In this document: positions 1 through 14,234 of the stretch, in pieces
How positions within the stretch are numbered: position 1 is the first letter of the stretch
Layout of the letters: every line of letters begins with the position of its first letter
Source of the DNA: Escherichia phage KKP 3954
Strand: one strand, 5' to 3'
Sequence record: OR067838.1
DNA: 64,000 nt
The notes under the pieces: generated by a model
Seen by the model: only the letters and a program-made list of their open reading frames with translations
Databases searched by the model: none
What the model was told of the DNA's origin: nothing
Position numbers and translations under genes: made by a program

Positions 1-1100
1 TTTTCGGGCCGTCAGGTCCACGCAGCGACAATTCCCAAATATCATGAGAATGAGAATAATTATCATTCGTATTCAATGACTTATGCAAGGCTCATGCCAA
101 CATAGCGACAAGGTGGCCCACCTGATTATAAATCACACAAACACTTATTTATCAATGGCTTGGCAACTTCATCATATGACGGAACAATGTCAACTGATCC
201 CGCCCATGACAAGCAGACTATTATTTATATGAGAATGATTATTATTTAAACGTTTATTAGCATATAAACTAAAATAAATCAAGAATTTTCTGATTTTATT
301 TACGTTTAAGAGAAGGTGCTCAACATTCCCGCCTGTGGCGGTAACATTTCGCCCCCAAAATTATTGCTTTTTATCTTATTATGTGCATAGTGTGCAATGT
401 ATCGGAATGATGATAATCATCCTCCCATTGCCCCCATAATTATTGCCATGCTAATTGTTTCCTTACGTAATTACCACAATGATTATTGTTATTGCGCTAA
501 TGTTATGATCTTGGTAATTACATATAATGCTAATAATAAGCCAGCGCAATAAGTGTAAGCGTCATTACGCTTGCAATTATTGCAAGCTACGCAGTAACAA
601 GAAATAACCATCACCGATGGTTATGATTGTTGGGGTGTAGTTGGCTTATTATTAGCTCGCTACGTGTCCGGCGTAGCGTGCTAATGATGATCCTTGGAAT
701 GATTCGTTTTGTAATGATTTCATTCAGTCACTATTATGGCAATATACACTATTTTGCTAATAGTTGATCTTTTAATGGTTTCGTTTGTTATTGTTCGTTA
801 GTTGGTTGTTTTGTCGTGTTATCGTTATCTTGTTTAATATTCATCATGGTTTGATTGTTTGTCGTTATCAGTCATCTTGCTATTATTCCTTTGATTATGA
901 TTAGTTTGCTTATTGTTTTATGTTGTTTGTTGGTTAGTTGTTGCGAACTATTATCAACATTATAGTTATGCACTTATATTGAATAGATAATCAATGATAG
1001 ATGATAATGGTTATCATTGCACTAGAAAGGAGGTAAAAGGGTGTTTTTGATGGTTTGTTGTTGGTTGTTGATCGATTTTAACCGCTCTAAATAGCTCTCT
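1..1100. other. Long non-coding AT-rich region with strong T/G skew on the plus strand, short inverted repeats and operator-like palindromes; no ORF of 60 aa or more on either strand
   Basis: ORF track empty before 1120; low-complexity gtt/ttg/tta-rich sequence at 660-1000; hairpin-capable repeats at 540-700. Confidence 0.5.
45..67. promoter_or_regulatory. Palindromic operator-like motif ATGAGAATGAGAATAATTATCATT (Fur-box-like AATGAT-N-ATCATT core); related copies at 231-247, 405-424, 981-1020, 11607-11628, 11667-11685, 11695-11717
   Basis: Repeated near-palindromic motif seen directly in sequence, confined to the non-coding regions flanking the early gene cluster. Confidence 0.3.
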
Positions 1101-1221
1101 AACAGCCTGTTGCCCTGAGATGTATGGTTATTCGTTTAATGGTCGATTAGCTCGATACCGTGATTTATTCAGTTTTGTTCTGTGTCGGTTTTTCATAGGC
1201 GAAAGCTATCAACATTATTCG

Positions 1222-1251
1222 GGCAAAAAGAAAGGGCGCTTGATGCGCCCT
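1222..1251 (-). terminator. Rho-independent terminator (hairpin AGGGCGCATCAAGCGCCCT plus T-run on minus strand); identical copy at 6145-6173
   Basis: GC stem-loop followed by TTTCTTTTT on minus strand, just downstream of the stop of gene 1267..1650. Confidence 0.55.
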
Positions 1252-1266
1252 GGTATGAAATGTTAT

Positions 1267-1650
1267 TTACTGATAAGCCGGATCATTTGTTATATCAATC
1301 CAATGAGATAAATTAATTTTATTTTTTGCTTTCATTTTCTCGATCAAACGTTCGGCTAATGTCTCGGAACGAATATAAACGTTTTCGCTAAAATCTTGCC
1401 CCGTTTCATCGTCGATCATCTCGCGATATTCAATTTTCCCGATAAACGCGTGATTCAGCGCATAAGTTTTACCCGTGTACCAATTATGTAAATGAATCTC
1501 GCATTTATAATCATCGCTATAACCTTCGGTTGTTCTAACTTCAACCAGATCGCCTTTAAACACTGACAAGCACCACATAGGATCACGGTCTACAGCGCCG
1601 TTAAAGTCTTTACCGTTTACAGTCGCTGCCAGGTTGATGATATTGCTCAT
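1267..1650 (-). CDS. Hypothetical early protein
   Basis: ORF track 1267..1725; start moved to ATG at 1650 with AGGAA Shine-Dalgarno (SD); TTGACA-17-TATTAT promoter upstream. Confidence 0.55.
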   Translation of the reverse strand: MSNIINLAATVNGKDFNGAVDRDPMWCLSVFKGDLVEVRTTEGYSDDYKCEIHLHNWYTGKTYALNHAFIGKIEYREMIDDETGQDFSENVYIRSETLAERLIEKMKAKNKINLSHWIDITNDPAYQ

Positions 1651-1696
1651 GGTGATTCCTCGTTTACCGTTTAAAATTGTTTGCCCTACGTGATAA

Positions 1697-1725
1697 ATAA
1701 TAATGTAAGCGTGATCCGGTGTCAA
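1697..1725 (-). promoter_or_regulatory. Sigma70-like early promoter (TTGACA, 17 nt spacer, TATTAT)
   Basis: Consensus -35 and -10 hexamers read on minus strand upstream of gene 1267..1650. Confidence 0.5.
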
Positions 1726-2033
1726 TAGGTAGAATTGTAAAGATTTGATAGTTTATTCCTTTGATGTTTTGTTGTTTGATAGGCATTAGTTATCAATATA
1801 TAGCGGGGTCTTCCGGTGATTATCTTCCCCTGCTTCCAGGTGCCGCCCGTTCAATAAGTATAACAAAAAACAGAACAAAAACAAGTCCTGTTTTTCTTAT
1901 TTTTAAAACCAGTTGCCAACCGTTTCCAATAGGTCACTGACTACCAGGACAACACTGATCAGCACATATTCAACTATGAAGGGGATAAGCGCCAGCGTCG
2001 CTACTATGATCCCCATTGTGATGATTACCTTTC

Positions 2034-2324
2034 TCATTGTTGGCGGCTTACGTAGGCTTTACCGTTTACGGTCATCGGTATGGCCTCAAGGTCTGGATCT
2101 TCCTTAAGGTCGCGTGCAAGCTCACCGCAGCGGATACCCTCGAATCCGTGGTATTCTGTCTCGCCGTCCTTGAAAGTTTTAGCGGCAAGGCATAGGCGAT
2201 AATTAACACCGATCCGGTTTACTGCGTTGATGTCGGTTAGCGTGATAGATTCCGGCAACTCATTAGCCATTGCAGGCGCGTTAATACCAACAACCAGGGC
2301 AACTACTGCGATCATCTTTTTCAT
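2034..2324 (-). CDS. Small secreted or periplasmic protein (N-terminal signal peptide)
   Basis: ORF track; N-terminus MKKMIAVVALVVGINAPAMA is signal-peptide-like; SD present. Confidence 0.6.
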   Translation of the reverse strand: MKKMIAVVALVVGINAPAMANELPESITLTDINAVNRIGVNYRLCLAAKTFKDGETEYHGFEGIRCGELARDLKEDPDLEAIPMTVNGKAYVSRQQ

Positions 2325-2379
2325 GTTGTTTAACCTCTTCCTATTGCGTTTAATGGGGCGTTACCGCCCTGTTTATGGT

Positions 2380-2616
2380 TTATTGATTGATGTTATAATG
2401 AAAATTATTTTCTTCAATAGCTTTTAAAATAAAAGCCGTGATCGCTTTCGTGTCTACTTGTTCGAACGTATCAGAATAGCACCAATAATAATCATCCCCT
2501 ACTTTCGGCGGGTAAACCTGGACAAGGAGATCGCCACCTGGTTGATCTATAAGCTCAACATGCAAGCCGGATGATTCAGCGGTTTTAACGGCGTTTAATA
2601 CTGTTGCAATACTCAT
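2380..2616 (-). CDS. Hypothetical early protein
   Basis: ORF track; ATG start; GC hairpin leader upstream. Confidence 0.55.
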   Translation of the reverse strand: MSIATVLNAVKTAESSGLHVELIDQPGGDLLVQVYPPKVGDDYYWCYSDTFEQVDTKAITAFILKAIEENNFHYNINQ

Positions 2617-2660
2617 AATCTTTCCCTTTCTGATGTGGGGCGTTGCCGCCCCTTTGTTGA

Positions 2661-2960
2661 TTAGATCGCTGTTTCCAGTAGTTCGGCTAACGTCTTACCG
2701 CCTGATAGTTGGTCTAACGTTTGCTCTTCTGGCAAGAAATTAGCTGATATTAAACCGACTTGATTCCCTTTGTGCCAGTTAGCCTGGCGGATGATTCCAT
2801 CCTTTAAGGATTTTACCGCCATTGTGCAACCGTCGCCAAATGATTCATTTTTATGGTCCATCACTTCATAAGCGCCCAGCTTGCTGCTGTTAGGCACCAT
2901 TAACGCGAATACATCACCAACAACCAGTTTTTCTACGGTAACAATAGCGATAGTTTCCAT
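2661..2960 (-). CDS. Hypothetical early protein
   Basis: ORF track; ATG start; promoter and GC hairpin leader at about 2975-3040. Confidence 0.55.
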   Translation of the reverse strand: METIAIVTVEKLVVGDVFALMVPNSSKLGAYEVMDHKNESFGDGCTMAVKSLKDGIIRQANWHKGNQVGLISANFLPEEQTLDQLSGGKTLAELLETAI

Positions 2961-3041
2961 TTTACTTTCCTCATTATCGGCGGCACCATTGCCGCCCTAC
3001 GTGGTAAATATTAGCACACTGGCGATCTGTGTCAATACTTT

Positions 3042-3428
3042 TTATTCAATATAAATCAAATTATCTTCACCAATGTAAGCCGACACGTTCGGCATAAACT
3101 TAGCTGCATTGGTTAGGCGGTTCGCCGTGTTAGTGGTGTATATTTCAGGGCGATCCCAAAAGCCTACGCCGTGACTGTTACGGGTAAAATGTAAATCATT
3201 CCCGATCTGGTTGGCTGTTGCGCCGTCGCTCATTGCCTCAGAGATAGCGGCAAGATTAGCATTAATAAAGGCTGTTACATCCTGGGCGATCCGTTCGTCC
3301 GCGCTAGGAGAAAAATCATAATCGTCTAAGTTATCAATAAAATTACCTTCATGATCCCTTGCTGATTCAGCAAAAATAAAGGCTTCTTTATAACCGTTGA
3401 TGATTTCAATAATGATTTCTGTTTTCAT
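3042..3428 (-). CDS. Hypothetical early protein
   Basis: ORF track 3042..3446; probable ATG at 3428; overlaps upstream gene by about 22 nt. Confidence 0.5.
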   Translation of the reverse strand: MKTEIIIEIINGYKEAFIFAESARDHEGNFIDNLDDYDFSPSADERIAQDVTAFINANLAAISEAMSDGATANQIGNDLHFTRNSHGVGFWDRPEIYTTNTANRLTNAAKFMPNVSAYIGEDNLIYIE

Positions 3429-3642
3429 GCTGTATACGCTCGACAATAATAATAGTTTGCGGGATCTCGTTTTCTACTACTAACAAGGCTTTTTTCTGTG
3501 TGATAGATATTTTAACACGTTGTAAAGTAGCGGTAAAATCTTTCATTTCATTATGCGCGGATTTAGTACAATGCCAGATCTCAGGTTTACCAACTTGCAA
3601 GCCGCGTAAAAATTCCGTTTTACCTGTCTTATTCGTGATCAT
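3406..3642 (-). CDS. Hypothetical early protein
   Basis: ORF track 3406..3651; ATG at 3642. Confidence 0.5.
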   Translation of the reverse strand: MITNKTGKTEFLRGLQVGKPEIWHCTKSAHNEMKDFTATLQRVKISITQKKALLVVENEIPQTIIIVERIQHENRNHY

Positions 3643-3652
3643 TTGTTTCACC

Positions 3653-3757
3653 TTAGCCGATACCGTGGGAAGATAGGATCATGTTAGCCATAGTTGCAAC
3701 CACTCCAACCGATAACGCCAGGCCCACTATTACAACCGTGAAAATTTTCTCTAACAT
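3653..3757 (-). CDS. Hydrophobic micro-protein (34 aa, single predicted TM segment)
   Basis: Not in ORF track (under 60 aa); ATG 3757 behind early promoter and leader; translation MLEKIFTVVIVGLALSVGVVATMANMILSSHGIG. Confidence 0.4.
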   Translation of the reverse strand: MLEKIFTVVIVGLALSVGVVATMANMILSSHGIG

Positions 3758-3838
3758 GATTCTACCCTCATTAATGGGCGTTGCCTTATTGCCCCGCCCT
3801 ACGAAATACATTCTACCCGATTTATAATTGTTGTCAAA

Positions 3839-4108
3839 TTATTTTTTCAAGCTTGACCACTCAAAACACGGGGCGATCTCGTTAAAACTTGTACCCTGTA
3901 AAGCACATAATTTTTTAGCAATAGCCGCCGTAACCTGGCGTTGAACGCGCGGATCTGCTACTGATTGGAGAAAGTAGGCGGTTTTATATGTGATCATGCT
4001 TTCGCCTGTTTCCTTGTTAACATGATGCACTATTTTAGCCTTATCATCTTTTACCAGGATGTAACCGGATTCGATGGCCTTGATTGCAACGTCCAATGAT
4101 ATTTTCAT
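3839..4108 (-). CDS. Hypothetical early protein
   Basis: ORF track; ATG start; hairpin leader upstream. Confidence 0.55.
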   Translation of the reverse strand: MKISLDVAIKAIESGYILVKDDKAKIVHHVNKETGESMITYKTAYFLQSVADPRVQRQVTAAIAKKLCALQGTSFNEIAPCFEWSSLKK

Positions 4109-4154
4109 GATTTACCTCTTTATTGACGGCGGGGATTACTCCCCGCCTCATTAA

Positions 4155-4325
4155 TTACTCTTCATCGTCGCCGTTATAGTATTCAATGCCGTTTTCATCG
4201 GTTACGGTGATATTAACGCCACCGATAGCAACACGATCACGGGCAAACGTCATGGCTTCATTTAAATCTTCAGACCAAAAAATATTGTGACCTTTGCGCG
4301 ATACATAAAACATAGTCGGGATCAT
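4155..4325 (-). CDS. Hypothetical early protein (about 56 aa)
   Basis: ORF track 4155..4409 begins inside the leader hairpin (translated as HIGRRNGP); start moved to ATG 4325. Confidence 0.5.
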   Translation of the reverse strand: MIPTMFYVSRKGHNIFWSEDLNEAMTFARDRVAIGGVNITVTDENGIEYYNGDDEE

Positions 4326-4410
4326 GATTTGTTTCTCTTCTGTTGTGAGCGGTGGACCATTCCGCCGCCCTATGTGGTAAACTTTACTACGTTGTTTGCG
4401 TGCTGTCAAA

Positions 4411-4695
4411 TTATTTTTTAATGTTTTGCCCTACAAAATTAATCATTTCCTTAAGCTGTCTCTCTGTCATGATCGTACCTGGTAATTCCTCTTTAATTTC
4501 TTGCGGTAAATAGATATTACCGTGCCAGGTTAACAAACAACCGTTTTGATCTTCGCAGATAGAATAAGAAAACATCCACTCGCAATCATTTTCAAGCTCC
4601 CAAAAACACAAAAAGTCTTCTTTCCCTAAGTTTTCAACGGTTAAGCATAATCCGCGACGTGCTGCATAATTAGTTAGGCTTTTTGTGATCTTCAT
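4411..4695 (-). CDS. Hypothetical early protein (Cys-rich)
   Basis: ORF track; ATG start; promoter and hairpin leader at 4700-4770. Confidence 0.55.
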   Translation of the reverse strand: MKITKSLTNYAARRGLCLTVENLGKEDFLCFWELENDCEWMFSYSICEDQNGCLLTWHGNIYLPQEIKEELPGTIMTERQLKEMINFVGQNIKK

Positions 4696-4755
4696 GATTT
4701 TTCTCTCTTCTTGTGAGCGGCATCATTGCCGCCCTACGAGATACACTTTACCAGA

Positions 4756-4884
4756 TTAAGCGGACTTGTCAAACTGTTTTTTCTTTTTCTTTGCTTCTAA
4801 CCGTCTAAGGTTACGGCTTGACTTATTGCGCAAGGCGCTTAGATCGTCGTACCCTTTCCATGCTTGCATATCTTTCGGATTCAT
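4756..4884 (-). CDS. Small basic protein (42 aa)
   Basis: Not in ORF track; SD AAGGGGA then ATG 4884; lysine-rich C-terminus. Confidence 0.4.
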   Translation of the reverse strand: MNPKDMQAWKGYDDLSALRNKSSRNLRRLEAKKKKKQFDKSA

Positions 4885-4893
4885 GTTATCCCC

Positions 4894-5055
4894 TTACTTG
4901 TTAGCCGGATTATATGCCAGGACCGCGCCGCTTGCTTTCACGCTTTCCGCTTCATAATTGCGCAAGTCTTCTTCTGTAAGATTGAGCGCGATCACTTCCT
5001 CGATCTCAACGTCAGCGGCAAGGGCGATCTCTTTGATAATGTCTGTTGTTTTCAT
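4894..5055 (-). CDS. Small acidic protein (53 aa)
   Basis: Not in ORF track; SD AAGGTG then ATG 5055; stop lies in the SD of the next gene. Confidence 0.4.
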   Translation of the reverse strand: MKTTDIIKEIALAADVEIEEVIALNLTEEDLRNYEAESVKASGAVLAYNPANK

Positions 5056-5065
5056 GGTATGCACC

Positions 5066-5185
5066 TTATAAGATGATTAATAAGATAGTGACAACGAAAG
5101 CGATTATACTGATGGCAAATGTCATCTTTTTACCTTCGGATACTGCCGGATTTTGTACCGTGTATTCTACTGTGTATTTGCTCAT
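5066..5185 (-). CDS. Hydrophobic micro-protein (39 aa, C-terminal TM segment)
   Basis: Not in ORF track; SD GAGAGGA then ATG 5185; behind promoter and leader at about 5200-5280. Confidence 0.4.
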   Translation of the reverse strand: MSKYTVEYTVQNPAVSEGKKMTFAISIIAFVVTILLIIL

Positions 5186-5283
5186 CGTGTAATCCTCTCG
5201 TTTGCTTTGGGAACTATTCCCGCCGCCCTATGAATTAAATATACACTATCTCAAAATGATTGCAAGCCTTTTTCTAAATTATT

Positions 5284-5568
5284 TTATGCAGTAAACAAAC
5301 CATCATTTACAACGGCGGCGATGATCTCCCGTGCCATTGATTCAGGGAAAGGGGCGCTATAGTCCTGGCTTGTCTCGTTGGTATCAGTGATCCAATGATA
5401 AGCTAACGAGTAAACGCCTTTACTAATTGTTTTCAGTGAGATGATGATCACTCGATTAAGCTTATTGGTGAATGTTGCCGTTAATGTGTTACCCTCCTGC
5501 GTCATGTTAGACAAGTAAGCGGCATCATTAACCAGGGAAAACATTAGCACGGTGTTAGCTTTACTCAT
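5284..5568 (-). CDS. Hypothetical early protein
   Basis: ORF track 5284..5628; start moved to ATG 5568 after leader hairpin; SD GAGGA. Confidence 0.55.
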   Translation of the reverse strand: MSKANTVLMFSLVNDAAYLSNMTQEGNTLTATFTNKLNRVIIISLKTISKGVYSLAYHWITDTNETSQDYSAPFPESMAREIIAAVVNDGLFTA

Positions 5569-5695
5569 GATTTCATCCTCAAAGGGGGCGCGGCACCATT
5601 GCCGCCCTACACGATAACTATAACACAATATAAAGCAGGATCAACTTTTATTTTTCCACGGTGTTAGTTTGTTAATCATTGGTGATAAATAACGT

Positions 5696-5854
5696 TTACC
5701 AACGTAAAACAAGTACGCCAACTGATGCAACGGCGGCGATCTCATGTAAGGAGGAAGGTCGCGCGGTGTCATAGTAGGTACCGATAATAGCAATAGCGGC
5801 AACGGCGGCAATATCGGTAATGATTTTTTCTTGTTTTGTTGTGATAGTGGTCAT
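5696..5854 (-). CDS. Hydrophobic small protein (52 aa)
   Basis: Not in ORF track; ATG 5854 behind promoter and leader at about 5870-5930. Confidence 0.4.
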   Translation of the reverse strand: MTTITTKQEKIITDIAAVAAIAIIGTYYDTARPSSLHEIAAVASVGVLVLRW

Positions 5855-5939
5855 AATGTTTTTCTCTTTTATGTGGTCGGGAACTATTCCCGCCCTATGC
5901 GATACATCTTATCAGACCTGGTTATGGTGTCAACCATTT

Positions 5940-6125
5940 TTAAAGATATTTTATATTAATAACGTTTTCAGGTTTAACCTTGTTGTGATGTGCATCAACA
6001 TAGATCAGACCATCGTCAGAAAAGCCCAGGATCACGCCCTGCGCAATAAAACCGTATTCGTCACGGTAACGCACGGCTATTTTTAATGTTGCGTTGTAGG
6101 CTGTTTTAAGCTCGTTTAAAGTCAT
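5940..6125 (-). CDS. Hypothetical early protein
   Basis: ORF track; ATG 6125 with SD AGGGGAT. Confidence 0.55.
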   Translation of the reverse strand: MTLNELKTAYNATLKIAVRYRDEYGFIAQGVILGFSDDGLIYVDAHHNKVKPENVINIKYL

Positions 6126-6180
6126 CTGTGTTTATCCCCTGCATGTAAAAAGAAAGGGCGCTTGATGCGCCCTTGTTATG

Positions 6181-6327
6181 TTAATCCTCTAAATCCATCC
6201 AATTATATTTGTCACTCTTCCCGCGCTTTGTTTTATTACGCTTATCGCCTTTGCGGATCACTTCCTCGTTCCAGGCCTTGCGGATCTTGGAAGATTGAAT
6301 TTTTTCTGCGCGATTAGATGTATTCAT
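6181..6327 (-). CDS. Small basic protein (48 aa)
   Basis: Not in ORF track; SD GAGGAAACA then ATG 6327; behind promoter and leader at 6340-6400. Confidence 0.4.
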   Translation of the reverse strand: MNTSNRAEKIQSSKIRKAWNEEVIRKGDKRNKTKRGKSDKYNWMDLED

Positions 6328-6406
6328 TTTGTTTCCTCTTCATATGAGCGGCACCATTGCCGCTATATTGTTAATTTAAACTGTTTTGTAAAATTGTCAA
6401 GGTTTA

Positions 6407-6760
6407 TCATTCATAAGAGCAAGCAAGGATCACGCCTGCAATATAAAGCCAATAATTTTCCCTTTCTCGTTGGATTTTATCATCGCTGCTATTCTCTTTA
6501 ATGTATCCCCAGGATGTTAACAAGCGATCAATTTCCCAATATTCGAAAGCGATATTGATATCTGATGGCAAACCTTGTAACCATGATGCAAGTGCTTTAA
6601 CAATACTATAATTAAAACGTGATTGGTTATCAGGGTACCAATACTCGGAATTAAAACGGCGCATCAATTCCGCGATCTTCTCTTTTTCGGTTGTAATACC
6701 GTAATCATTAAAATCGATAGCGGCAAGGATGTACTCTTTAATTGCATTTTGTGCTTTCAT
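6407..6760 (-). CDS. Hypothetical early protein
   Basis: ORF track; ATG 6760; promoter and leader at 6775-6835. Confidence 0.55.
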   Translation of the reverse strand: MKAQNAIKEYILAAIDFNDYGITTEKEKIAELMRRFNSEYWYPDNQSRFNYSIVKALASWLQGLPSDINIAFEYWEIDRLLTSWGYIKENSSDDKIQRERENYWLYIAGVILACSYE

Positions 6761-6850
6761 GGTCTTTCTCTCTTTTTGAGCGGGAACTATTCCCGCCCTA
6801 CGTGTAACAGTTTACTAAAAATTAAATCCGTGTCAAGCCTTATTTTGTTA

Positions 6851-7063
6851 CTACCATTTGGTATACCCTGTCTCAATGTTAGTAAACACTGTTATCCCGT
6901 CCTGGCGTTCACTCATTAACATACAAGGCGCTAACATCCTTTCTACTGCCTTGCACTCATTATAAGCGGCGGTGATGTCTCCTGCTGCCTTGTCTTCTGT
7001 GGTGAATGTATCGTTTACGTAAACCTGACCAGCAACAACGGCGACAATAGCAAAAGTAATCAT
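6851..7063 (-). CDS. Hypothetical early protein (hydrophobic N-terminus)
   Basis: ORF track; ATG 7063; promoter with -10 inside the hairpin loop at 7085-7135. Confidence 0.55.
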   Translation of the reverse strand: MITFAIVAVVAGQVYVNDTFTTEDKAAGDITAAYNECKAVERMLAPCMLMSERQDGITVFTNIETGYTKW

Positions 7064-7137
7064 GATGTTTCCTTGTTAATAGTGGTTTCTCTTCTCTATA
7101 GCGCCCATTATAAGGCGCTATAACGAAAAGTCAACGA

Positions 7138-7305
7138 TTATTTTTTAAGGCTTAAAGTACCTAACTTGTCAGCATGACGCAGACCAGGGAAGATCCATTT
7201 GCCTGATTCATCTTTTACCGGGGCTTTAAACGTTGCGCCCAGGTTGGCGGCGTTAACTTTACGTGCAACGTTGCGAGCGGCTTCACGGGTAGCGAAAGTG
7301 ATCAT
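7138..7305 (-). CDS. Hypothetical early protein (about 55 aa)
   Basis: ORF track 7138..7389; start moved to ATG 7305 with SD GAGGAAACA. Confidence 0.5.
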   Translation of the reverse strand: MITFATREAARNVARKVNAANLGATFKAPVKDESGKWIFPGLRHADKLGTLSLKK

Positions 7306-7395
7306 GATGTTTCCTCTTCTCTTTGTTAGGCGGTGGGCTATTCCACCGCCTTGATGAATACAGTTTACTTTATTTTTGCAGTATTGCAAGCGGTT

Positions 7396-7611
7396 TTATG
7401 AAATAAATGTCAAAGTAAAATCATAATCTTTTGACAGTTTATATTGCACCTTGTTACCGTATATGTCACCTTTACGTAAAGATCCACGGATACCGATAAC
7501 ATCCTTCACGTCTTTTAAATTTTTCACGCCTGTAATGTCTTTGTTGAAATACTCGTCATCTGAAAATAAAACTTGCTTTGCATTTTTTAACAAGGTGCGG
7601 ATATTAGCCAT
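7396..7611 (-). CDS. Hypothetical early protein
   Basis: ORF track; ATG 7611; hairpin leader at about 7630-7660. Confidence 0.55.
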   Translation of the reverse strand: MANIRTLLKNAKQVLFSDDEYFNKDITGVKNLKDVKDVIGIRGSLRKGDIYGNKVQYKLSKDYDFTLTFIS

Positions 7612-7701
7612 CGTGATAATCTCTCTTCTGTTGTGAGCGGCACCATTGCCGCCCTATGTAATATATTCTACTCTTTTTCTTTCCGGTGTCAACAATCTTT
7701 T

Positions 7702-7929
7702 TCAGATTAATTCGTCCAGGCATAACAAGCGATCAACGTTGAGATCGGTTAGGCTAATCGTCGGCACCTGGTAGGATTCGATATACTCAACGCTTGCATA
7801 TTCCCCAAAATTAGCAACAGCCCAGTTATTCAAGATTTCACATACATCATTAATCTTTTTGTTTGTTACAACTGCTACAACCTGGGAATAGCCAACGGTG
7901 CCGGATACGCGAACAATATTGATAGCCAT
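7702..7929 (-). CDS. Hypothetical early protein
   Basis: ORF track; ATG 7929; hairpin leader at 7953-7972. Confidence 0.55.
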   Translation of the reverse strand: MAINIVRVSGTVGYSQVVAVVTNKKINDVCEILNNWAVANFGEYASVEYIESYQVPTISLTDLNVDRLLCLDELI

Positions 7930-7983
7930 AATCTTTAATCTCTCTGTTGTGAGCGGGAAACCATTTCCCGCCCTATGCGATAC

Positions 7984-8011
7984 ATCTTACACTAATTTTA
8001 AACGTTGTCAA
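7984..8011 (-). promoter_or_regulatory. Early promoter of the conserved family (TTGACA, 16 nt spacer, TAAGAT), followed by GC stem-loop leader at 7953-7972
   Basis: Hexamers read on minus strand; same architecture in more than 20 copies. Confidence 0.55.
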
Positions 8012-8020
8012 CTGTTTTTA

Positions 8021-8260
8021 TTACATTCCAACCATCGCGGCACGGATCGCAGTAGTGCTATATTTGAAACCGTCTGGAGTTTTATCTTGTCCAGTTTGTT
8101 CCAGAAAAAGCATCATATCCCGCGCCGCATCATTACGATTAGCATTAGCGTTAATAAAATCCAAGGCCAACCGATACAATGATTCATCGTTATTAATCCA
8201 AAGGCTTACATTCCAATGAGTTTTGTTTTTGTGACCGTTGTAAGTTTTAGTAATAGCCAT
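8021..8260 (-). CDS. Hypothetical early protein
   Basis: ORF track; ATG start; promoter and leader upstream. Confidence 0.55.
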   Translation of the reverse strand: MAITKTYNGHKNKTHWNVSLWINNDESLYRLALDFINANANRNDAARDMMLFLEQTGQDKTPDGFKYSTTAIRAAMVGM

Positions 8261-8349
8261 GATGATAATCTCTCTTTGAATGAGGCGGGAACTATTCCCG
8301 CTCTCTATGTAATACAGTTTACTCTTTTTATTCGTGCTGTCAATGCTTT

Positions 8350-8715
8350 TTATAAATCTTTTTTACGTTTTACATCGCTTGCATGACTGTATACAGTGAT
8401 CCCATTATCACGGCAAAAACGGGAAAGATACGCGCCACGTGAAAACTCTTTACCTTCCATATTAATAACCTTGCTAAATTCTTCCAGGGCGACGGTATCA
8501 AAATGATCACCATAGCCATATTGAAACGGAACGTTAACCACCTCGATCAATTTACCGCCGATCTCAACGTCAACCATTAAAGAAAAATATGTGTTACCGT
8601 AGGACTGTTGAAACCAGCGACGGGCGCTAATATGCACCGCCTCAATGCTGGATAATTCAATTTTAGCCGTGTTAGCCAGGGTAGCATAAGAGGAAACATT
8701 AATATTACTAGCCAT
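8350..8715 (-). CDS. Hypothetical early protein
   Basis: ORF track 8350..8733; ATG 8715 preferred (SD AAGGT); the 8733 ATG abuts the hairpin without an SD. Confidence 0.5.
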   Translation of the reverse strand: MASNINVSSYATLANTAKIELSSIEAVHISARRWFQQSYGNTYFSLMVDVEIGGKLIEVVNVPFQYGYGDHFDTVALEEFSKVINMEGKEFSRGAYLSRFCRDNGITVYSHASDVKRKKDL

Positions 8716-8803
8716 GATGATAACCTTTTTCATTGTTGGCGGGAAACCACTTCCCGCCCTATGTGGTAAACTATACCAGAAGTTTAAACAGTGTCAACCG
8801 TTT

Positions 8804-9166
8804 TTATTCGTAAATTTTACCGCTTTCGGCCCATACCATAACGCGGCGCATACTATCCCAAGTGTTTTGATCCAGGTTTAAGCCGTGCAACTCTTCGGTA
8901 CTTCCCAGACCAGGTACCGCCTTGTTGTAAGTTGCATATAAGCGCCCTTGATACTCATATGCCAGGGTGAGATCCGTTTGAATCATCTTTTTAAGCATAG
9001 CATTAAGCATCATATTAGCGGCATGTTGATCACGTTTTAGCGGTAACATATCAATAAGGGCGCGATAAGCTGAAACATGAATATCAACCGTTTCACGTGG
9101 TAAATTTTTCATATCATCGCGGAAAGATACCAGATTAAACATGATAGTATTGATTTGCTTGCTCAT
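8804..9166 (-). CDS. Hypothetical early protein
   Basis: ORF track; ATG start; leader hairpin at 9188-9209. Confidence 0.55.
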   Translation of the reverse strand: MSKQINTIMFNLVSFRDDMKNLPRETVDIHVSAYRALIDMLPLKRDQHAANMMLNAMLKKMIQTDLTLAYEYQGRLYATYNKAVPGLGSTEELHGLNLDQNTWDSMRRVMVWAESGKIYE

Positions 9167-9220
9167 TGTGTTACCCTTTTTTGTTTTGGCGGGGAAGTAT
9201 TCCGCCGCCCTATGTGATAC

Positions 9221-9248
9221 ATCTTATCAGATTAAAAAACGTTGTCAA
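9221..9248 (-). promoter_or_regulatory. Early promoter of the conserved family (TTGACA, 16 nt spacer, TAAGAT)
   Basis: Hexamers on minus strand, followed by stem-loop 9188-9209 and SD+ATG of gene 8804..9166. Confidence 0.55.
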
Positions 9249-9256
9249 GAATATTT

Positions 9257-9352
9257 TTAGAAAATAATAACCGCTACTACAATCCAAAATGGAACGGCTA
9301 GAATGATACCGTTAATCGTTCCAACCGTCAAGCTATTTTCTTTATTAATCAT
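9257..9352 (-). CDS. Hydrophobic micro-protein (31 aa)
   Basis: Not in ORF track; SD AAGAGG then ATG 9352; translation MINKENSLTVGTINGIILAVPFWIVVAVIIF. Confidence 0.35.
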   Translation of the reverse strand: MINKENSLTVGTINGIILAVPFWIVVAVIIF

Positions 9353-9434
9353 TGTAAGCCTCTTGTATAATTTCACTATGAGCGGCACCATTGCCGCCCT
9401 ACGTGGTAAATATTATGCTAGTGGCGGCGATATG

Positions 9435-10254
9435 TCAAAGACTATTTTCAAAGTTTTCTAGGGCGATCCTTTTTTCTTCCTCTGTCGGCTGATAATCAGG
9501 AAAAGCATCAACACACAACAACGGCGGGATCTCTTCATACTCTTCCTCTTCCGTTGTCTCCTCGTCTTCCTCCTGGGCTATGGCTGCAATTTTGGCTAAT
9601 TTTCTCTCCGCTTGAATCAGTTTACCATCAAATACGTTTTTTGCCATGTTGTAAGCGGTCCAGGTGATGCGCTTACTTTCTAGTGCTTCATCAAGCGCCG
9701 CTATCTTGCTGGGGTATTCATCCAGGACACGAAAAGCCGGATCAACTTTGTATACAAGGGATTATCTTTCGCACCGTCGCTCGCATCTTCCGCACTGGAT
9801 AAATCAGCGTTACCATTTGCCAGCCAACCAGGGCGCACATAACGCGCTTTTACGTTGCCGTTACTACGTGCTAATCTGTTACCTATTTGCTCCCCGCTAT
9901 AGCCCGTGGATTCATCGACAAGATAATCAGGAATGATGCGCGGATCATCTGCTTCATGTTTTACCCAAGACTGGATCACATATTCGCGGCCCATATTAAC
10001 CACCTTTTTTTCAACAATCGGCATACTTTAAAAAGACTTGCTGAATCCTTGCAAGGGTAGAAAGATGTACGATAGTCACGTACGCCAACCTTGCGGATCT
10101 CGATGTTCTCGCATGTTGTTTGATCAAAAATATTTATTTCATCACGCCCCCTTATATAAACATAATGGGGATGTATTAACGCATACTTTGCTAATCTGTA
10201 AAAAGCGTTATCCTTGAACGCGATCACGTGACCTTTTAATTTGATGTAAAACAT
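9435..10254 (-). CDS. Hypothetical early protein with acidic C-terminal domain; one gene split into three track ORFs (9976..10254, 9701..10024, 9435..9647) by two apparent 1-nt deletions (T7 run 10005-10011; GTATAC 9750-9755)
   Basis: Only the first ORF has promoter, leader and SD (ATG 10254); the internal ATGs lack an SD; reading continues without stops after a -1 shift at each junction; C-terminus is Glu/Asp-rich. Confidence 0.5.
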
Positions 10255-10330
10255 TCTACCACCTTACAAATAGCGGGAACTATTCCCGCTTTATGTAACA
10301 TATTAACAAATTATTCGTTAATGTCAAGCC

Positions 10331-10603
10331 TTAAAGCAAAAACGCTACATCTTGCGCTTTTAGTGTAGTATCAACCATTTTTGGGCTTTTATAATCAACA
10401 AAACGCGCGGTTTTTTCAATAGCAAAACCGAGATAATCTTGTTTATTGAATTTACATTCTTTCTTAAATGTTTCCCGCGCCACGGTGATCGCTGCGTCCA
10501 GGGATAAACGCCCGTCAATGTTGATATTTGCGAAAGATCCGCCACCGCTCATAGGTTTACCAGTGGTGCCAGCTACGATCATTGTTGCGCTATATGATGC
10601 CAT
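10331..10603 (-). CDS. Hypothetical early protein
   Basis: ORF track 10331..10663 starts inside the leader hairpin; start moved to ATG 10603. Confidence 0.5.
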   Translation of the reverse strand: MASYSATMIVAGTTGKPMSGGGSFANINIDGRLSLDAAITVARETFKKECKFNKQDYLGFAIEKTARFVDYKSPKMVDTTLKAQDVAFLL

Positions 10604-10626
10604 GATTATAATCTCTCTTCTGTTGT

Positions 10627-10650
10627 GAGCGGCTGGACCATTCCGCCGCC
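10627..10650 (-). other. Conserved GC stem-loop in the 5-prime leader of early transcripts (example copy; family consensus GGCGGCAATGGTGCCGC with compensatory variants)
   Basis: More than 20 copies between promoter -10 and SD; stem changes are compensatory (e.g. CGGGAACTATTCCCG, CGGGAAACCATTTCCCG). Confidence 0.6.
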
Positions 10651-10661
10651 CTATGTGATAC

Positions 10662-10689
10662 ATCTTATCAGGTTGTTGGTTGTTGTCAA
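10662..10689 (-). promoter_or_regulatory. Early promoter of the conserved family (TTGACA, 16 nt spacer, TAAGAT)
   Basis: Hexamers on minus strand upstream of leader hairpin 10627-10650. Confidence 0.55.
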
Positions 10690-10695
10690 TACTTT

Positions 10696-10893
10696 TTATT
10701 CTATTCCTGCAATCTGATTAACGCGTTTGCATTTTGTAGCGTGCTGGTCTTCTGTAATTACTCCCATTTCTAACAGTGAATCAATGAAAGATAAAACCGT
10801 TTCATGATCATCCTGGGGATGACTGAACTCAGTAAAACCGTTTACTACCACGTTTATTTGTCCAGCTTTCGCCACAATGTGCAATGTTGCCAT
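10696..10893 (-). CDS. Hypothetical early protein (about 65 aa)
   Basis: ORF track 10696..10983; start moved to ATG 10893 after the leader hairpin; SD GGAG. Confidence 0.5.
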   Translation of the reverse strand: MATLHIVAKAGQINVVVNGFTEFSHPQDDHETVLSFIDSLLEMGVITEDQHATKCKRVNQIAGIE

Positions 10894-11080
10894 GATCTTA
10901 ACTCCAAATAGTGAGCGGCACCATTGCCGCGCTACGTGGTAAATATTATGCCGCCACCTGGCGAACGTCAACCACTTTTTCAATCTTTTTTATTTTCTTT
11001 TTGCTTGCTATATATAAAGGAAAGGGCTATCATCTTTCTACCGCGCCAACCAGGGCGCACAACAAAGAAAGGGCGACACC

Positions 11081-11347
11081 ATGACAACTACTACATTACA
11101 CCTTATGCACTCATTGGGCTGGCAAGGCGGCACGGTGCACCAGGTAGCAAGCGCAACAGGCTTAAAGGTTGAAACCGTTCTCAACCTGGGCGATCATAAA
11201 GTGGAAGAGATAGAACATTTTGATCCGTTCGCTGATGGTTATTTATGGGCTTGCAGTGGCGGCGGGGAAAGCAAGATCCCGCCAGCGGCGCGGGGCGATA
11301 TGCATTTTTGGTTAGGTGTCCTTTCCTGGCAAGAAAACAAAAAATAA
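11081..11347 (+). CDS. Hypothetical protein in a GC-rich island (atypical composition, possible moron)
   Basis: ORF track; only plus-strand gene in the first 18 kb; local GC clearly above the genome background. Confidence 0.45.
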   Translation: MTTTTLHLMHSLGWQGGTVHQVASATGLKVETVLNLGDHKVEEIEHFDPFADGYLWACSGGGESKIPPAARGDMHFWLGVLSWQENKK

Positions 11348-11349
11348 TC

Positions 11350-11378
11350 TTGACAAGCCCAGGGATCGGGCTTATACT
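11350..11378 (+). promoter_or_regulatory. Near-consensus sigma70 promoter (TTGACA, 17 nt spacer, TATACT) followed by a GC-rich structured segment of about 110 nt
   Basis: Hexamers seen directly; same GGG(A)CTTATACT -10 context recurs at 46759-46787. Confidence 0.5.
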
Positions 11379-11719
11379 GTTTTACATACAGAAGAGGAAG
11401 CGCCACCCCACGGCGTAAAGGCGGGGCTAACATACCAGGGCGCTGGTTGGAAGGTTGATCGCCGGTAGGCTGGGCGCTATATATTTGTAAAGAAATGTAA
11501 AGATAAAATAATCGCTTGCTTTCCTGGCTGGATCTGTTATTCTTATTACATGGCGAGGGGATACGGGAACGCGAGACAAACACCGCCCCTGCGCGTCATT
11601 CTCTAAATGAGAATGATTATCATTTACCTTATTGAATAAGAATCAATCTCATTTATAAACTTAAATGCGAATCATTATCATTTGCATTTCCATATGAGAA
11701 CTCTTCTCATTCTCACCTG

Positions 11720-11960
11720 CATAAATTTTTGTAAACTTTAAATTTTGCTTTTGTATTTTCATTTTTGTAAAAGCAAAAAAACTTTAAATACTGTGGGCGC
11801 GCAAAATTTTTAAAATTTTCCTTGACTTTTGAGTTTTGTTTTGTATCTAACATTTTAAGATAATTTTCCTAAACTTTAAATTTTGGTTTTCAACTTTCAC
11901 TTTTGTAAATTCTTAAAAAGTTTAAATAATTTGAGGAATTTTTGAGATAACAGGTAGTGG
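11720..11960. repeat. AT-rich region with two imperfect direct repeats of about 65 bp (each with AAACTTTAAATTTTG and TTTTGTAAA) and a TTTGAGATAAC direct repeat
   Basis: Repeats read directly in the sequence; no ORFs; lies between the two minus-strand gene clusters. Confidence 0.45.
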
Positions 11961-12060
11961 TAATTTGAGATAACCTTTAATCTTGTTGGTAAACCTTCAG
12001 GAACCCACCTAGATCGAATCCTAGAAAGGTCAACTGAAAAAGACAAGTGTTTGTATAGGA

Positions 12061-12096
12061 CAAAATAATAGGCTCTCTACGGTGCTGTAGGAGCCT
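12061..12096 (-). terminator. Rho-independent terminator downstream of the NADAR gene
   Basis: Hairpin GGCTCTCTAC..GTAGGAGCC followed by T-rich tract on minus strand. Confidence 0.5.
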
Positions 12097-12151
12097 TATT
12101 TCTGTGCTACAAAGTGGCACCTTTGTTCTAAAAATGAAAAAAGTTAAAATA

Positions 12152-12694
12152 TCACAAATATCGTCTTTGCGGTATTTTGTCTGGGAAAAGTATTTCGATC
12201 AGTTTATTATGATATTTGCCTAAAAGATTCTGCCCTTTCCAAGTGGCAGGGTTGAGCACCCCTGGTTCATACATCCCCATTCCAATTCCGTAAACCTTAT
12301 CGTAGGGGCTTGCTTCAACAAACGTTTTGTATTGGTAAAGGTGCAAGTCTGCATACAAATCTGGATTCTGTATATATTTCAAGCATAAACCTCGCATAAC
12401 AATACGCTCACGGTTCTCTTCCCACACGTTGTTATCAAAATCCGACACTGCCCTACCCATACGTTTGTAATAAGCTTGTTTCCTCTCGTTGTCACGTATA
12501 GTCGAGTGATCAAGGATAGCTGCTGCAATCGCATGATCCTTGAACAGCAAAGCCTTACGCCACATCATGTATTGCTCAACACAACAGAAAGTCTCATTGT
12601 AACCTGGTTCGGTTTCTGTAAAGGGTGCAATATACCAATTACTAAAAACATCTTTATGTGAAAAGAAGAATACATATTCGTCAGTTATTCTCAT
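12152..12694 (-). CDS. NADAR-domain (YbiA-like, DUF1768) protein; candidate ADP-ribose-processing enzyme
   Basis: 180 aa; FFF..FSNW..PF, EQ..M..KA.LF and NP.L motifs typical of the YbiA/NADAR fold. Confidence 0.6.
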   Translation of the reverse strand: MRITDEYVFFFSHKDVFSNWYIAPFTETEPGYNETFCCVEQYMMWRKALLFKDHAIAAAILDHSTIRDNERKQAYYKRMGRAVSDFDNNVWEENRERIVMRGLCLKYIQNPDLYADLHLYQYKTFVEASPYDKVYGIGMGMYEPGVLNPATWKGQNLLGKYHNKLIEILFPDKIPQRRYL

Positions 12695-12870
12695 TTTTTC
12701 ATACCTTCTAAGACTTTAGCTTGCCCGTCTTGAAAAGCTTTCATCAGAACTATCTTAAGATTGACTTCCAAACGTTCTTCATCCTCTTTATAACAATCCA
12801 ACACTGCTTTAAGTTCATCATAGTGGTTCAGAATAGGTTTAAAGATTTCATGATCTGCTAAACGTGCCAT
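12691..12870 (-). CDS. Hypothetical protein (about 59 aa)
   Basis: ORF track 12691..12906; start moved to ATG 12870 with SD AAGGAG. Confidence 0.5.
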   Translation of the reverse strand: MARLADHEIFKPILNHYDELKAVLDCYKEDEERLEVNLKIVLMKAFQDGQAKVLEGMKK

Positions 12871-12883
12871 AGTTTCTCCTTTG

Positions 12884-13249
12884 TTAATCCATCCACCAGT
12901 AGCCATAAACTGCGTCTGCGTCGATGAGTTTGTGTTTGTTGTTCCGCATGTAGTCTAAGATAAGTAGACGTTTATTGTATCTAGAGAGATTATGACCCTC
13001 TTTTCCGCCATAGTCAAAATATTTTGCAAGATCTTTACACTCAAACAAAATCAGTTCGGGAGTTTCTTCACACTGGTCTGTCTGGTACACTTGACGAATG
13101 ATCATGTATACATCGTCGTCTTCCGCTAAATGCTCTACTGGTCCACATCCAGCAGGAACAAATTCATAGTCCCATCTGATCAGATGTTTCTCTACTGCTT
13201 CAAAGAAGTCCATTCTTTCGTTGCGCATAATTTGAACGTCAACTAACAT
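12884..13249 (-). CDS. Hypothetical protein
   Basis: ORF track; ATG 13249 with SD AGGAGGA; contains an in-frame GTATAC at 13106-13111 with no break. Confidence 0.55.
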   Translation of the reverse strand: MLVDVQIMRNERMDFFEAVEKHLIRWDYEFVPAGCGPVEHLAEDDDVYMIIRQVYQTDQCEETPELILFECKDLAKYFDYGGKEGHNLSRYNKRLLILDYMRNNKHKLIDADAVYGYWWMD

Positions 13250-14234
13250 GTTTCCTCCTGTAATGTTCCACCATAAAGTTTATAAATGTTTTGTATTGAG
13301 GCCATGCAAGATAACTCTACTGTTTCTGTGTAGCCATCTGGCATAGAATATTTGCTCACTGCTTCCGTGTGAAGGACACGCTTACAACGCTTTTCTGCAT
13401 CTTTGCATTGCTTCACAGTAGGGAAGTGCCACACTTGGCTCTGTTTCATAGTAAACACATTATGACTATTTTGTTCTTTGATACGGCGATCACTACTATT
13501 GGCAATACCAAACTTCAAAGCACAGAGAAGATTTTGTTCATCGTAGATATAGTTGATGTATGCCTGTTGTTGTGTATGCCCTTTACACTGCGGACAACCA
13601 CGCCCCTTATGTAATAAGTGGTCAGCATTCCCTATTTGCTCCCCGTGATCCTTACATCCATATTTAAACTCTCCTGTTGAGGAAGGTTTACTAATCCACT
13701 CCATCCAGATATATCCTTTACTTTCTAAACCTTTTCTCACCTTGTAAGTGATCTGATCTTTTGTGTAACGGTAAACTCTAGTATACAACGACAAGGGATA
13801 ATCCCTTTTTTAAGATCGTTCCCTGCAATGTAAAATTTACCATCACACACTCCTGCTTGTACGTATTCATCATGAGAACAAACAGGACATTCAACCATCC
13901 AGAGAATATGACTCCCTTTACGTTTGCCTGTATTGGTGAAAATAGTACCAGGTTTAAACTTTCCTGTGTTAATGAAATCTTTTATGTGCTGATCGTCTGT
14001 CTTACCTCCTTTCCCAACTCCTTTCCCAATTGCACAGACAGGACAACCAGCACGACCAGTTTTAAAGTTTTTAAATGTTGTAGTGTTCCATTCATGAGCA
14101 TACTGACAACGATTGATCATTTTCGTGTGTTGTCCTGTAAACGGCTCAACAATTCCAATAATCTCAATCCCTTTAGCAGCAGCAATAGGTTGACACTCTT
14201 CAATATATTGTTCAATACTCTTCTTTACTGGCAT
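13243..14234 (-). CDS. Zn-finger plus T5orf172 (MUG113-like) domain protein; split into track ORFs 13737..14243 and 13243..13794 by an apparent 1-nt deletion at GTATAC 13781-13786
   Basis: N-terminal CxxC pairs; C-terminal LKFGIANSSDRRIKEQN resembles the T5orf172 core; the two ORFs join after a -1 shift inside the overlap. Confidence 0.45.

Follow-up and report, generated by a model that had tools for sequence, protein, structure and literature searches.

Fur boxes are textbook elements of bacterial promoters, and the 7-1-7 unit TGATAATNATTATCA is said to have been put forward by Baichoo and Helmann as the Fur binding unit. In E. coli, Fur clusters are made of units overlapping with a 6-bp shift, and 83% of these clusters overlap promoters (Chen et al. 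2007, PMC2189734). Host-regulator sites are also known in phages: lambdoid prophages have a Fur box in front of sitABCD (PMC6969025), and phages of Alphaproteobacteria have CtrA boxes (PMC9437464). The present analysis concerns a set of Fur-box-like palindromes found in a 64,000-nt stretch (hereafter the window) of the Escherichia phage KKP 3954 record OR067838.1. A sequence-only reading of the window had proposed that near-palindromes in seven intervals were operators, either for a dimeric phage repressor or for the host Fur protein, the latter tying early phage transcription to iron status. What is new is their location, at the DNA ends and in an island resembling the injection stop signal (iss) of phage T5, and their conservation across phage families; we found no literature report of Fur boxes as conserved arrays in terminal repeats or non-coding islands of virulent coliphages. 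The sites are real, they are not a product of chance and they are under purifying selection across phage families. That they are genuine Fur boxes, i.e. cis-acting elements which recruit the host Fur dimer, appears probable from the comparisons reported here.

The other system of direct relevance is the iss of T5. There, the first-step-transfer (FST) shear point has been calculated as position 9618, the DRC repeats and the PalD-PalJ palindromes are listed as unexplained, DnaA is proposed as the arresting host factor, with the responsible host protein termed 'unsolved', and the A1 protein is proposed to cleave the iss palindromes (Davison, bioRxiv 10.1101/866236). Fur is mentioned neither in that work nor in a 2026 T5 preprint.

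Fur-type palindromes and their conservation

The window comes from a Phapecoctavirus, i.e. a phAPEC8-like myovirus of the Stephanstirmvirinae with a genome of ~150 kb (90-97% identity over 1-1300 and 11200-12150, by BLAST). From 1267 to ~11000, and from 12152 onward, all the credible genes are small and on the minus strand. Two stretches are without a credible minus-strand gene: non-coding region A (NCR-A, 1-1266), which extends ~285 bp further left in circularly assembled relatives, and non-coding region B (NCR-B, ~11185-12151). The bracketing genes code for a T4 Gp30.8-like protein (1267-1725, minus strand) and a NADAR (YbiA-like) protein (12152-12694, minus strand). The GC content of the two regions is 36-38%, and every interval named in the sequence-only reading falls within one or the other. 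In the WPEC1 and WPEC2 records, which are ~10 kb longer than their relatives, the two regions are 23 kb apart; this suggests that the extra ~10 kb is an insertion or an assembly artefact.

Sites were scored by consensus match, together with an E. coli positive control, in place of a published E. coli Fur weight matrix. The strict core was the 7-1-7 unit given above (14 positions); the degenerate core, TGA(T/G)AAT-N-ATT(A/C)TCA, accepts G or T at core position 4 and A or C at position 12. The 19-mer Fur consensus was scored as well. The resulting boxes, and the terminal repeat in which two of them lie, are as follows (none of these features is assigned a strand):

1..320: inner 320 bp of the short direct terminal repeat (DTR), placed from the Schickermooser and phi92 repeats
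51..65: box A1, TGAGAATAATTATCA; 13/14 on the strict core, 16/19 with 46-64
230..244: box A2, TGAGAATGATTATTA; 12/14 on the strict core
411..425: weak box; perfect left half, 5/7 in the right half; lost in ukendt
942..956: weak box, TGCGAACTATTATCA; 12/14 on the degenerate core; 60 bp before box A5
1002..1016: box A5, TGATAATGGTTATCA; 13/14 on the strict core
11608..11622: box B1, TGAGAATGATTATCA; 13/14 on the strict core; first of four
11637..11651: box B2, TAAGAATCAATCTCA; 12/14 on the degenerate core
11666..11680: box B3, TGCGAATCATTATCA; 12/14 on the strict core
11695..11709: box B4, TGAGAACTCTTCTCA; 12/14 on the degenerate core; ATGAGAA-CTC-TTCTCAT

Against the 19-mer consensus, the two top scores in the 64 kb (16/19) are at 46-64 and 11609-11627; next come 15/19 at 406-424 and 1003-1021, and 14/19 at 231-249 and 11667-11685. 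The strict core occurs with one mismatch at 51-65, 1002-1016 and 11608-11622 and with two at 230-244 and 11666-11680, while the phage's own consensus, TGAGAATNATTATCA, is exact at 51 and 11608. With the degenerate core (at least 12/14), nine sites are found in NCR-A and NCR-B and only one elsewhere (22983, 12/14, i.e. at background level). Dinucleotide-preserving shuffles of NCR-A and NCR-B gave a mean of 0.09 degenerate sites, and none out of 2000 reached nine; for the strict core, five sites are observed against a mean of 0.055. A repeat finder independently recovered the same site families. In a further 50 kb, from phage Schickermooser, the sites scoring at least 13 are confined to the terminal-repeat copies.

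All seven intervals of the sequence-only reading hold the motif; its claim that the sites keep to non-coding DNA holds in the window as in Schickermooser, and the site counts are far above those of the shuffles. Its estimate of about 15 matches out of 19 was slightly low for the best sites, and its list missed the fourth array site (11637-11651) and the regular spacing described below, and included 405-424, which is weak. The low GC content of the two regions is what would favour an explanation by chance matches in AT-rich non-coding DNA; shuffles which never reach the observed counts, and sites which are kept across genera and subfamilies, have already refuted it and leave it a negligible probability.

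The four NCR-B boxes form an array with a start-to-start spacing of exactly 29 bp (11608, 11637, 11666, 11695). Alignment with other phages shows that the inter-box spacers vary in sequence and are constant in length, and that no promoter is conserved within the array (a weak TTGAAT-16-TATAAA between B1 and B3 is not conserved in the other phages). Another pair, close to the last gene, is 60 bp apart in the window (942-1016) and 58 bp apart in phi92 (1132-1204), i.e. about twice the array period.

The DTR boxes could be placed with the help of two relatives. In the record of Schickermooser, 329 bp are repeated exactly at the two ends, corresponding to window -8..320 (given as 328 bp in Korf 2019, PMC6563267), and phi92, which belongs to a different genus, has an annotated DTR of 343 bp at the same map position. 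The physical end is placed ~8-9 nt left of window position 1, the repeat starting with TAACGCGA both here and in phi92. Boxes 51-65 and 230-244 are therefore inside the DTR, two in each copy, ~60 and ~240 bp from the DNA end; two or three more occupy the 1.2 kb of non-coding DNA past the last gene. Box A1 is kept in Schickermooser, ukendt, TSP7_1, phiWec181 and phi92. The phi92 repeat is too diverged for BLAST alignment, yet it carries TGAGAATAATTATCA at 56-70 and a perfect (14/14) TGATAATGATTATCA at 251-265. In a four-way alignment of the DTR, the conserved islands are the TAACGCGA end, both boxes with their immediate flanks, an IHF-consensus sequence and the inner repeat boundary; the sequence in between is diverged and hard to align in phi92. 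As judged from this alignment, the pattern of islands is a phylogenetic footprint. The IHF-consensus sequence, TATCAATGGCTTG, is at 150-162 in the window and at 162-174 in phi92, between the two DTR boxes in both genera.

The NCR-B array extends further. Anchoring on the NADAR protein in IMG/VR gave 5 loci, and much more was learnt from distant BLAST searches of phage records. These detect window 11381-11689, at 70-80% identity, in rV5-like phages, Mydo, Certrevirus (POP15, PBES02) and Klebsiella, Salmonella, Erwinia and Cronobacter phages, in which the neighbouring sequence is not recognisable. The array is found in FBKp34, EmilieFrey, Mydo, POP15, PBES02, rV5 and Salmonella R7, with two to five boxes depending on the phage and a 29-bp spacing in FBKp34, POP15, PBES02 and Mydo; box sequence and position are conserved, and the spacer sequence differs. 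Among 53 different phage sites, the pair formed by core positions 4 and 12 is G/A in 22, G/C in 16, T/C in 8 and T/A in 6, so that G at position 4 (38/53) is commoner than T. As a measure of its commonness among viral contigs only, the 19-mer was present in at least 120 of them (IMG/VR scan, without taxonomy).

The BLAST matches of lowest coverage came from T5-like phages, 9.5-9.9 kb into the left terminal repeat: window 11635-11689, i.e. B2 and B3 with their spacer, matches T5-like iss DNA with 83-87% identity. The boxes of T5 (NC_005859) are at 9554, 9589, 9658 (TGAGAATCATTATCA), 9693, 9699 and 9705, spanning 9554-9719 with a period of ~35 bp. All six are within the annotated 'injection stop signal' (9140-10149), and they surround coordinate 9618. 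Judged by alignment and consensus match, the homologous arrays account for the most regular unexplained palindromes of the T5 iss, which are near-perfect Fur boxes. Other T5 sites deserve mention. A perfect Fur 7-1-7 unit, TGATAATCATTATCA, lies at 233-247, within the dmp gene near the left end. Perfect LexA boxes, CTGTATAAATATACAG, occur at 6213-6228 and 9411-9426, in the IRC/IRD' repeats and beside DnaA boxes; with the Fur-type sites, the T5 iss region therefore carries sites for three host DNA-binding proteins.

Evidence for Fur and for other binders

The positive control consisted of 50 kb of E. coli K-12 DNA around ent/fep. The top score, 13/14, was in the fepB-entC intergenic region, at the entC promoter, and the 11/14 matches include the fepA-fes, fepD-entS and fepB-entC intergenic regions, which are footprinted Fur operators. 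With 12-13/14 on the strict core, the phage boxes thus equal or exceed the footprinted operators in score. A scan of bacterial genomes (one per species) found AATGAKAATNATTMTCATT in at least 120 loci, in Proteobacteria and Firmicutes. For the gene context, 69 loci with at least one phage-type TGAGAAT half were taken among the matches listed, a choice made against circularity. Among these, the 90 adjacent open reading frames (ORFs) that could be called include 10 TonB-receptor Plug, 4 FUR, 4 Peripla_BP_2, 3 FecCD, 3 FeoB, 3 iron solute-binding protein (SBP) and 2 ZnuA members, while none of these families reaches two members among 90 control ORFs located at least 2.5 kb away at the same loci.

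The architecture of the sites points the same way. The hexamers at 46-64 are arranged as GAGAAT-GAGAAT-A-ATTATC, that is forward-forward-x-reverse as in the classical 19-bp Fur box, and the cores are flanked by AAA on one side and TTT on the other. Overlapping units shifted by 6 bp occur in phiWec181 (617 and 623), in T5 (9693, 9699 and 9705) and likewise in saus47N; the four array boxes of the window are single units 29 bp apart, without such overlap. Consensus match, hexamer architecture, bacterial regulon context and conservation across unrelated phage families thus argue for the host Fur sites suggested by the sequence-only reading. Together with weak negatives for a phage-encoded binder (see below), the motif, context and architecture make host Fur the most economical binder. 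As a sequence identity the Fur interpretation is well supported; as biology it is plausible.

Several points weigh against it. The boxes do not overlap -35 or -10 hexamers, which is the usual geometry of Fur repression, and separate sites at 29 or ~35 bp are not a known Fur arrangement. A protein preferring TGAGAAT could be the true ligand, given the G at core position 4 in 38 of the 53 sites. At the end of the GC-rich element called RNA2 below, box B1 pairs with upstream sequence in a conserved hairpin. The bacterial scan used a pattern of which the canonical Fur consensus was a part, and the neighbouring ORFs were called heuristically. Record boundaries at box edges (see below) may be true ends or breaks in the assembly; they could point to a part for the boxes in end formation. 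Finally, the case is built wholly from sequence, from which we infer that Fur binds.

A phage-encoded dimeric protein resembling Fur in its specificity is the alternative that the sequence-only reading had raised as a repressor. The candidate could be an early protein so far unrecognised, or the 88-aa product of the ORF at 11081-11347, a lone rightward small gene which adjoins the array and whose N-terminus (GGTVHQVA.ATGL.V) looks helix-turn-helix-like by eye; the predominance of G at core position 4 and the regular, separate sites, which resemble operator or iteron arrays, would also suit such a protein. However, the 88-aa ORF does not co-occur with the array outside the Stephanstirmvirinae, being absent from the fetched rV5, Mydo, POP15, PBES02 and T5-like loci, all of which have the array; it lacks a Pfam domain, and no function is known for its PHROG family. 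No homologue of the T5 pre-early (left-terminal-repeat) proteins, including the DNA-binding A2, was found in the window or in the fetched relatives, and Pfam detected no helix-turn-helix, repressor or Fur family among 46 ORFs (1.2-19.3 kb). With the motif present in three phage groups, and the identical sequence class acting as Fur operator in bacteria, the phage-repressor proposal is disfavoured and we hold it to be rather unlikely.

The boxes might instead be signals for end processing, packaging or DNA entry, read by a terminase, a nuclease or the ejection machinery with no part for Fur. Two of them are in the terminal repeat of phi92-like phages, those of T5 are around the FST shear point 9618 and near the left end, and some records are bounded exactly at a box edge: phiWec189 starts at one (AAATGAGAACGGTTATCATT from position 1), and ESCO5 and ESCO37 stop right after box A1 (window position 67/68). 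Yet the ends of phi92 and Schickermooser are 55-60 bp from the nearest box, and the largest array, at 11.6 kb, is not terminal. From classification alone, a common terminase specificity is not expected, the T5-like phages (Demerecviridae) being classified apart from the Vequintavirinae and Stephanstirmvirinae. With the exact match to Fur operators also left unaccounted for, this explanation is improbable. A role of the palindromes as hairpins (RNA terminators or processing sites) or as DNA cruciforms is very improbable indeed. What speaks for it is B1, which with the upstream TCATTCTC can form a hairpin of 9 bp with a U-rich tail behind it, flagged as terminator-like. This is the only plausible hairpin, a weak one at the 3' end of RNA2, and B1 may serve two roles; most boxes have no complementary upstream arm, and the 7-1-7 palindrome by itself leaves a 1-nt loop between AT-rich stems. 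Moreover, complementarity between core positions 4 and 12 is seen in 22 of the 53 sites, which is the expectation for independence: such variation suits a dimer that accepts either G or T in each of its half-sites, and does not suit a stem under selection.

The non-coding module and the proposed function of the boxes

Upstream of the array, NCR-B contains a rightward module, in the order P1, RNA1, TTTGTAAAGAAnTGTAAAGA, P2, RNA2, boxes. Its elements and neighbours are:

11081..11347, plus strand: ORF of 88 aa (phrog_19316), sole rightward gene in the region (more than 10 kb); Stephanstirmvirinae only
11350..11378, plus strand: promoter P1, TTGACA-17-TATACT; 11/12, conserved in the alignment
11385..11480, plus strand: GC-rich element RNA1; nearly invariant across Stephanstirmvirinae and Vequintavirinae
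11516..11543, plus strand: promoter P2, TTGCTT-16-TATTCT, from sequence and alignment; predicted start near 11550
11550..11625, plus strand: GC-rich element RNA2, with the invariant GAGACAAnCACC; ends in box B1
11724..11933, no strand assigned: AT-rich direct repeats, AAACTTTAAAT; units 11724-11795 and 11862-11933

P1 and P2 are predicted sigma-70 promoters, both directed rightward and opposing every flanking gene. The unit that they drive appears to yield non-coding RNA only, and it ends by a terminator-like site at 12104-12120. The core of RNA1 is GCCACCCCACGGCGwAAAGGCGGGGCTAAC...GGAAGGTnrATCGCCGG, and RNA2 folds at -27.3 kcal/mol (z = -3.2). Consensus folding of RNA1 and RNA2 gave a single covarying pair each, and a structured RNA family is therefore not claimed; the two GC-rich elements could represent a phage non-coding RNA not described before, or a primer unit of the origin type. 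The window has no tRNA over its 64 kb, and positions 1-14000 have no Rfam match at E up to 1. The 88-aa ORF has a conserved N-terminus, TLHLMH.L.WQGGTVHQVA.ATGL. The phAPEC8 annotation includes a 114-aa minus-strand ORF (11239-11583) whose translation is of low complexity and which shares its DNA with the conserved promoter/RNA module; it looks spurious and was treated as non-coding.

Three further features of these regions may be recorded. TTTGTAAAGAAnTGTAAAGA, at 11484-11512 just upstream of the P2 -35, consists of two TGTAAAGA units 11 bp apart and is invariant in 9/9 aligned phages; it may serve as an UP element or be bound by a protein. The AT-rich repeats, two 72-nt copies with 81% identity and 138 bp apart, are located between the array and the terminator of the NADAR gene and also occur in EmilieFrey; they may be a DNA-unwinding or iteron-like region. 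The 'PHIRE promoters' of phAPEC8 (172-191, 1188-1207, 2077-2096 and 2716-2735, corresponding to about 8370-10935 of the window, minus strand) are a conserved 5' leader hairpin, ACATAGGGCGGCAATGGTGCCGCTCA, which comes directly after the sigma-70 early promoters; RNA2 starts with the same ACATrGCG.

The position of the boxes relative to the promoters bears on the proposed link between early transcription and iron. The array spans +58 to +160 relative to P2, downstream of both rightward promoters, and boxes 51 and 230 lie upstream, by 120-330 bp, of the closest candidates for a leftward promoter. The genes for early proteins are served by promoters of their own, which are followed by the conserved leader hairpin and have no boxes. 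Iron control of early transcription, in the form proposed, is unsupported, since no box overlaps the -35 or -10 of an early-gene promoter and the array lies downstream of promoters directed against these genes; a cis-acting, architectural account should take the place of the regulatory one given in the sequence-only reading.

If host Fur is the ligand, each 15-bp core would bind one dimer, and cores overlapping with a 6-bp shift (46-65 and several T5 units) would bind two, as classical 19-bp boxes do. In an iron-replete cell, Fur would coat ~100 bp at +58 to +160 of the rightward unit, and the coated array could act as a roadblock or insulator limiting rightward non-coding transcription into the AT-rich repeats. 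Fur bound at the genome ends might help to build a terminal structure made with host proteins. Upon iron starvation, the loss of Fe-Fur would lift both effects. Among the possible functions, this roadblock together with an end structure is the one that we favour. These consequences of binding, like an entry checkpoint of the T5 type, are speculative. At E. coli ftnA, Fur displaces H-NS from upstream sites; a similar removal of a silencer, H-NS for example, from sites upstream, a help in end processing and a T5-like entry checkpoint are other possible readings here.

The checkpoint is the most far-reaching of these readings. It supposes that the arrays are the core of a DNA-entry checkpoint common to T5-like siphoviruses and rV5-, phAPEC8- and phi92-like myoviruses, in which Fur would be the host factor that arrests the incoming genome after ~8% of its length, at 9.6 kb in T5 and 11.6 kb here, and P1/P2 (A1/A2 in T5) would release it. 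No DnaA box (TTWTNCACA) was found in NCR-A, NCR-B or the homologous regions of rV5, phi92, FBKp34 and EmilieFrey, and the repeat is only 329 bp; both facts weaken the idea, which we regard as quite a long shot. If true, it would give the small genes of the leading end time to act, and staged genome entry would be widespread and gated by iron. More generally, if Fur does bind, three unrelated groups of large enterobacterial phages would have independently kept a means of reading or exploiting the iron state of the host at their DNA ends, and the sixty-year-old puzzle of the T5 injection stop could be tested cheaply with fur mutants, iron chelation and box mutants.

Comparison with known systems

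The T5 iss is close to the NCR-B locus in several respects. In both phages a GC-rich hairpin precedes the array and the leading segment is packed with small genes; the distance of the array from the end is 11.6 kb here (~7.7% of ~150 kb, the end being placed from relatives) and 7.9% in T5. The differences are as marked. In T5 the array is accompanied by DnaA and LexA boxes and nine DRD repeats, and the terminal repeat is 10 kb long, whereas the present phage is without these companions (LexA boxes too were not found here) and has a 329-bp repeat; the period is ~35 bp there and 29 bp here; and two-step DNA transfer is a property of T5 which is not known for the phAPEC8-like group.

The resemblance to bacterial Fur operators (19-bp box GATAATGATAATCATTATC) is carried by the core (12-14/14), the hexamer layout at 46-64, the 6-bp-shifted units of phiWec181 and T5, scores equal to those of the footprinted entC, fepA-fes and fepD-entS sites, and the presence of the same 19-mer class before TonB receptors, fur, feoB and iron ABC transporters. 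Unlike these operators, the phage boxes belong to a virulent phage and not to a chromosome, do not overlap promoter hexamers and are separate sites with a period of 29 (or ~35) bp in place of contiguous clusters shifted by 6 bp; they are located in a terminal repeat and downstream of non-coding promoters, and they prefer G at core position 4.

At the cosB site of lambda, IHF is a host protein which helps to build a complex beside the DNA end. The likeness here is that host-protein sites, among them the conserved IHF-consensus TATCAATGGCTTG, are within a few hundred bp of the physical end; the differences are that the main host protein is another one, that a packaging role has no evidence in its favour here and that an additional large array lies far from the end. 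The sitABCD Fur box and the CtrA boxes show, as does the present case, a phage carrying operators of a global host regulator, through which it could sense the physiology of its host. There, the sites are at specific promoters, of a cargo operon or of lytic genes; here, they mark non-coding landmarks, with no regulated gene in view.

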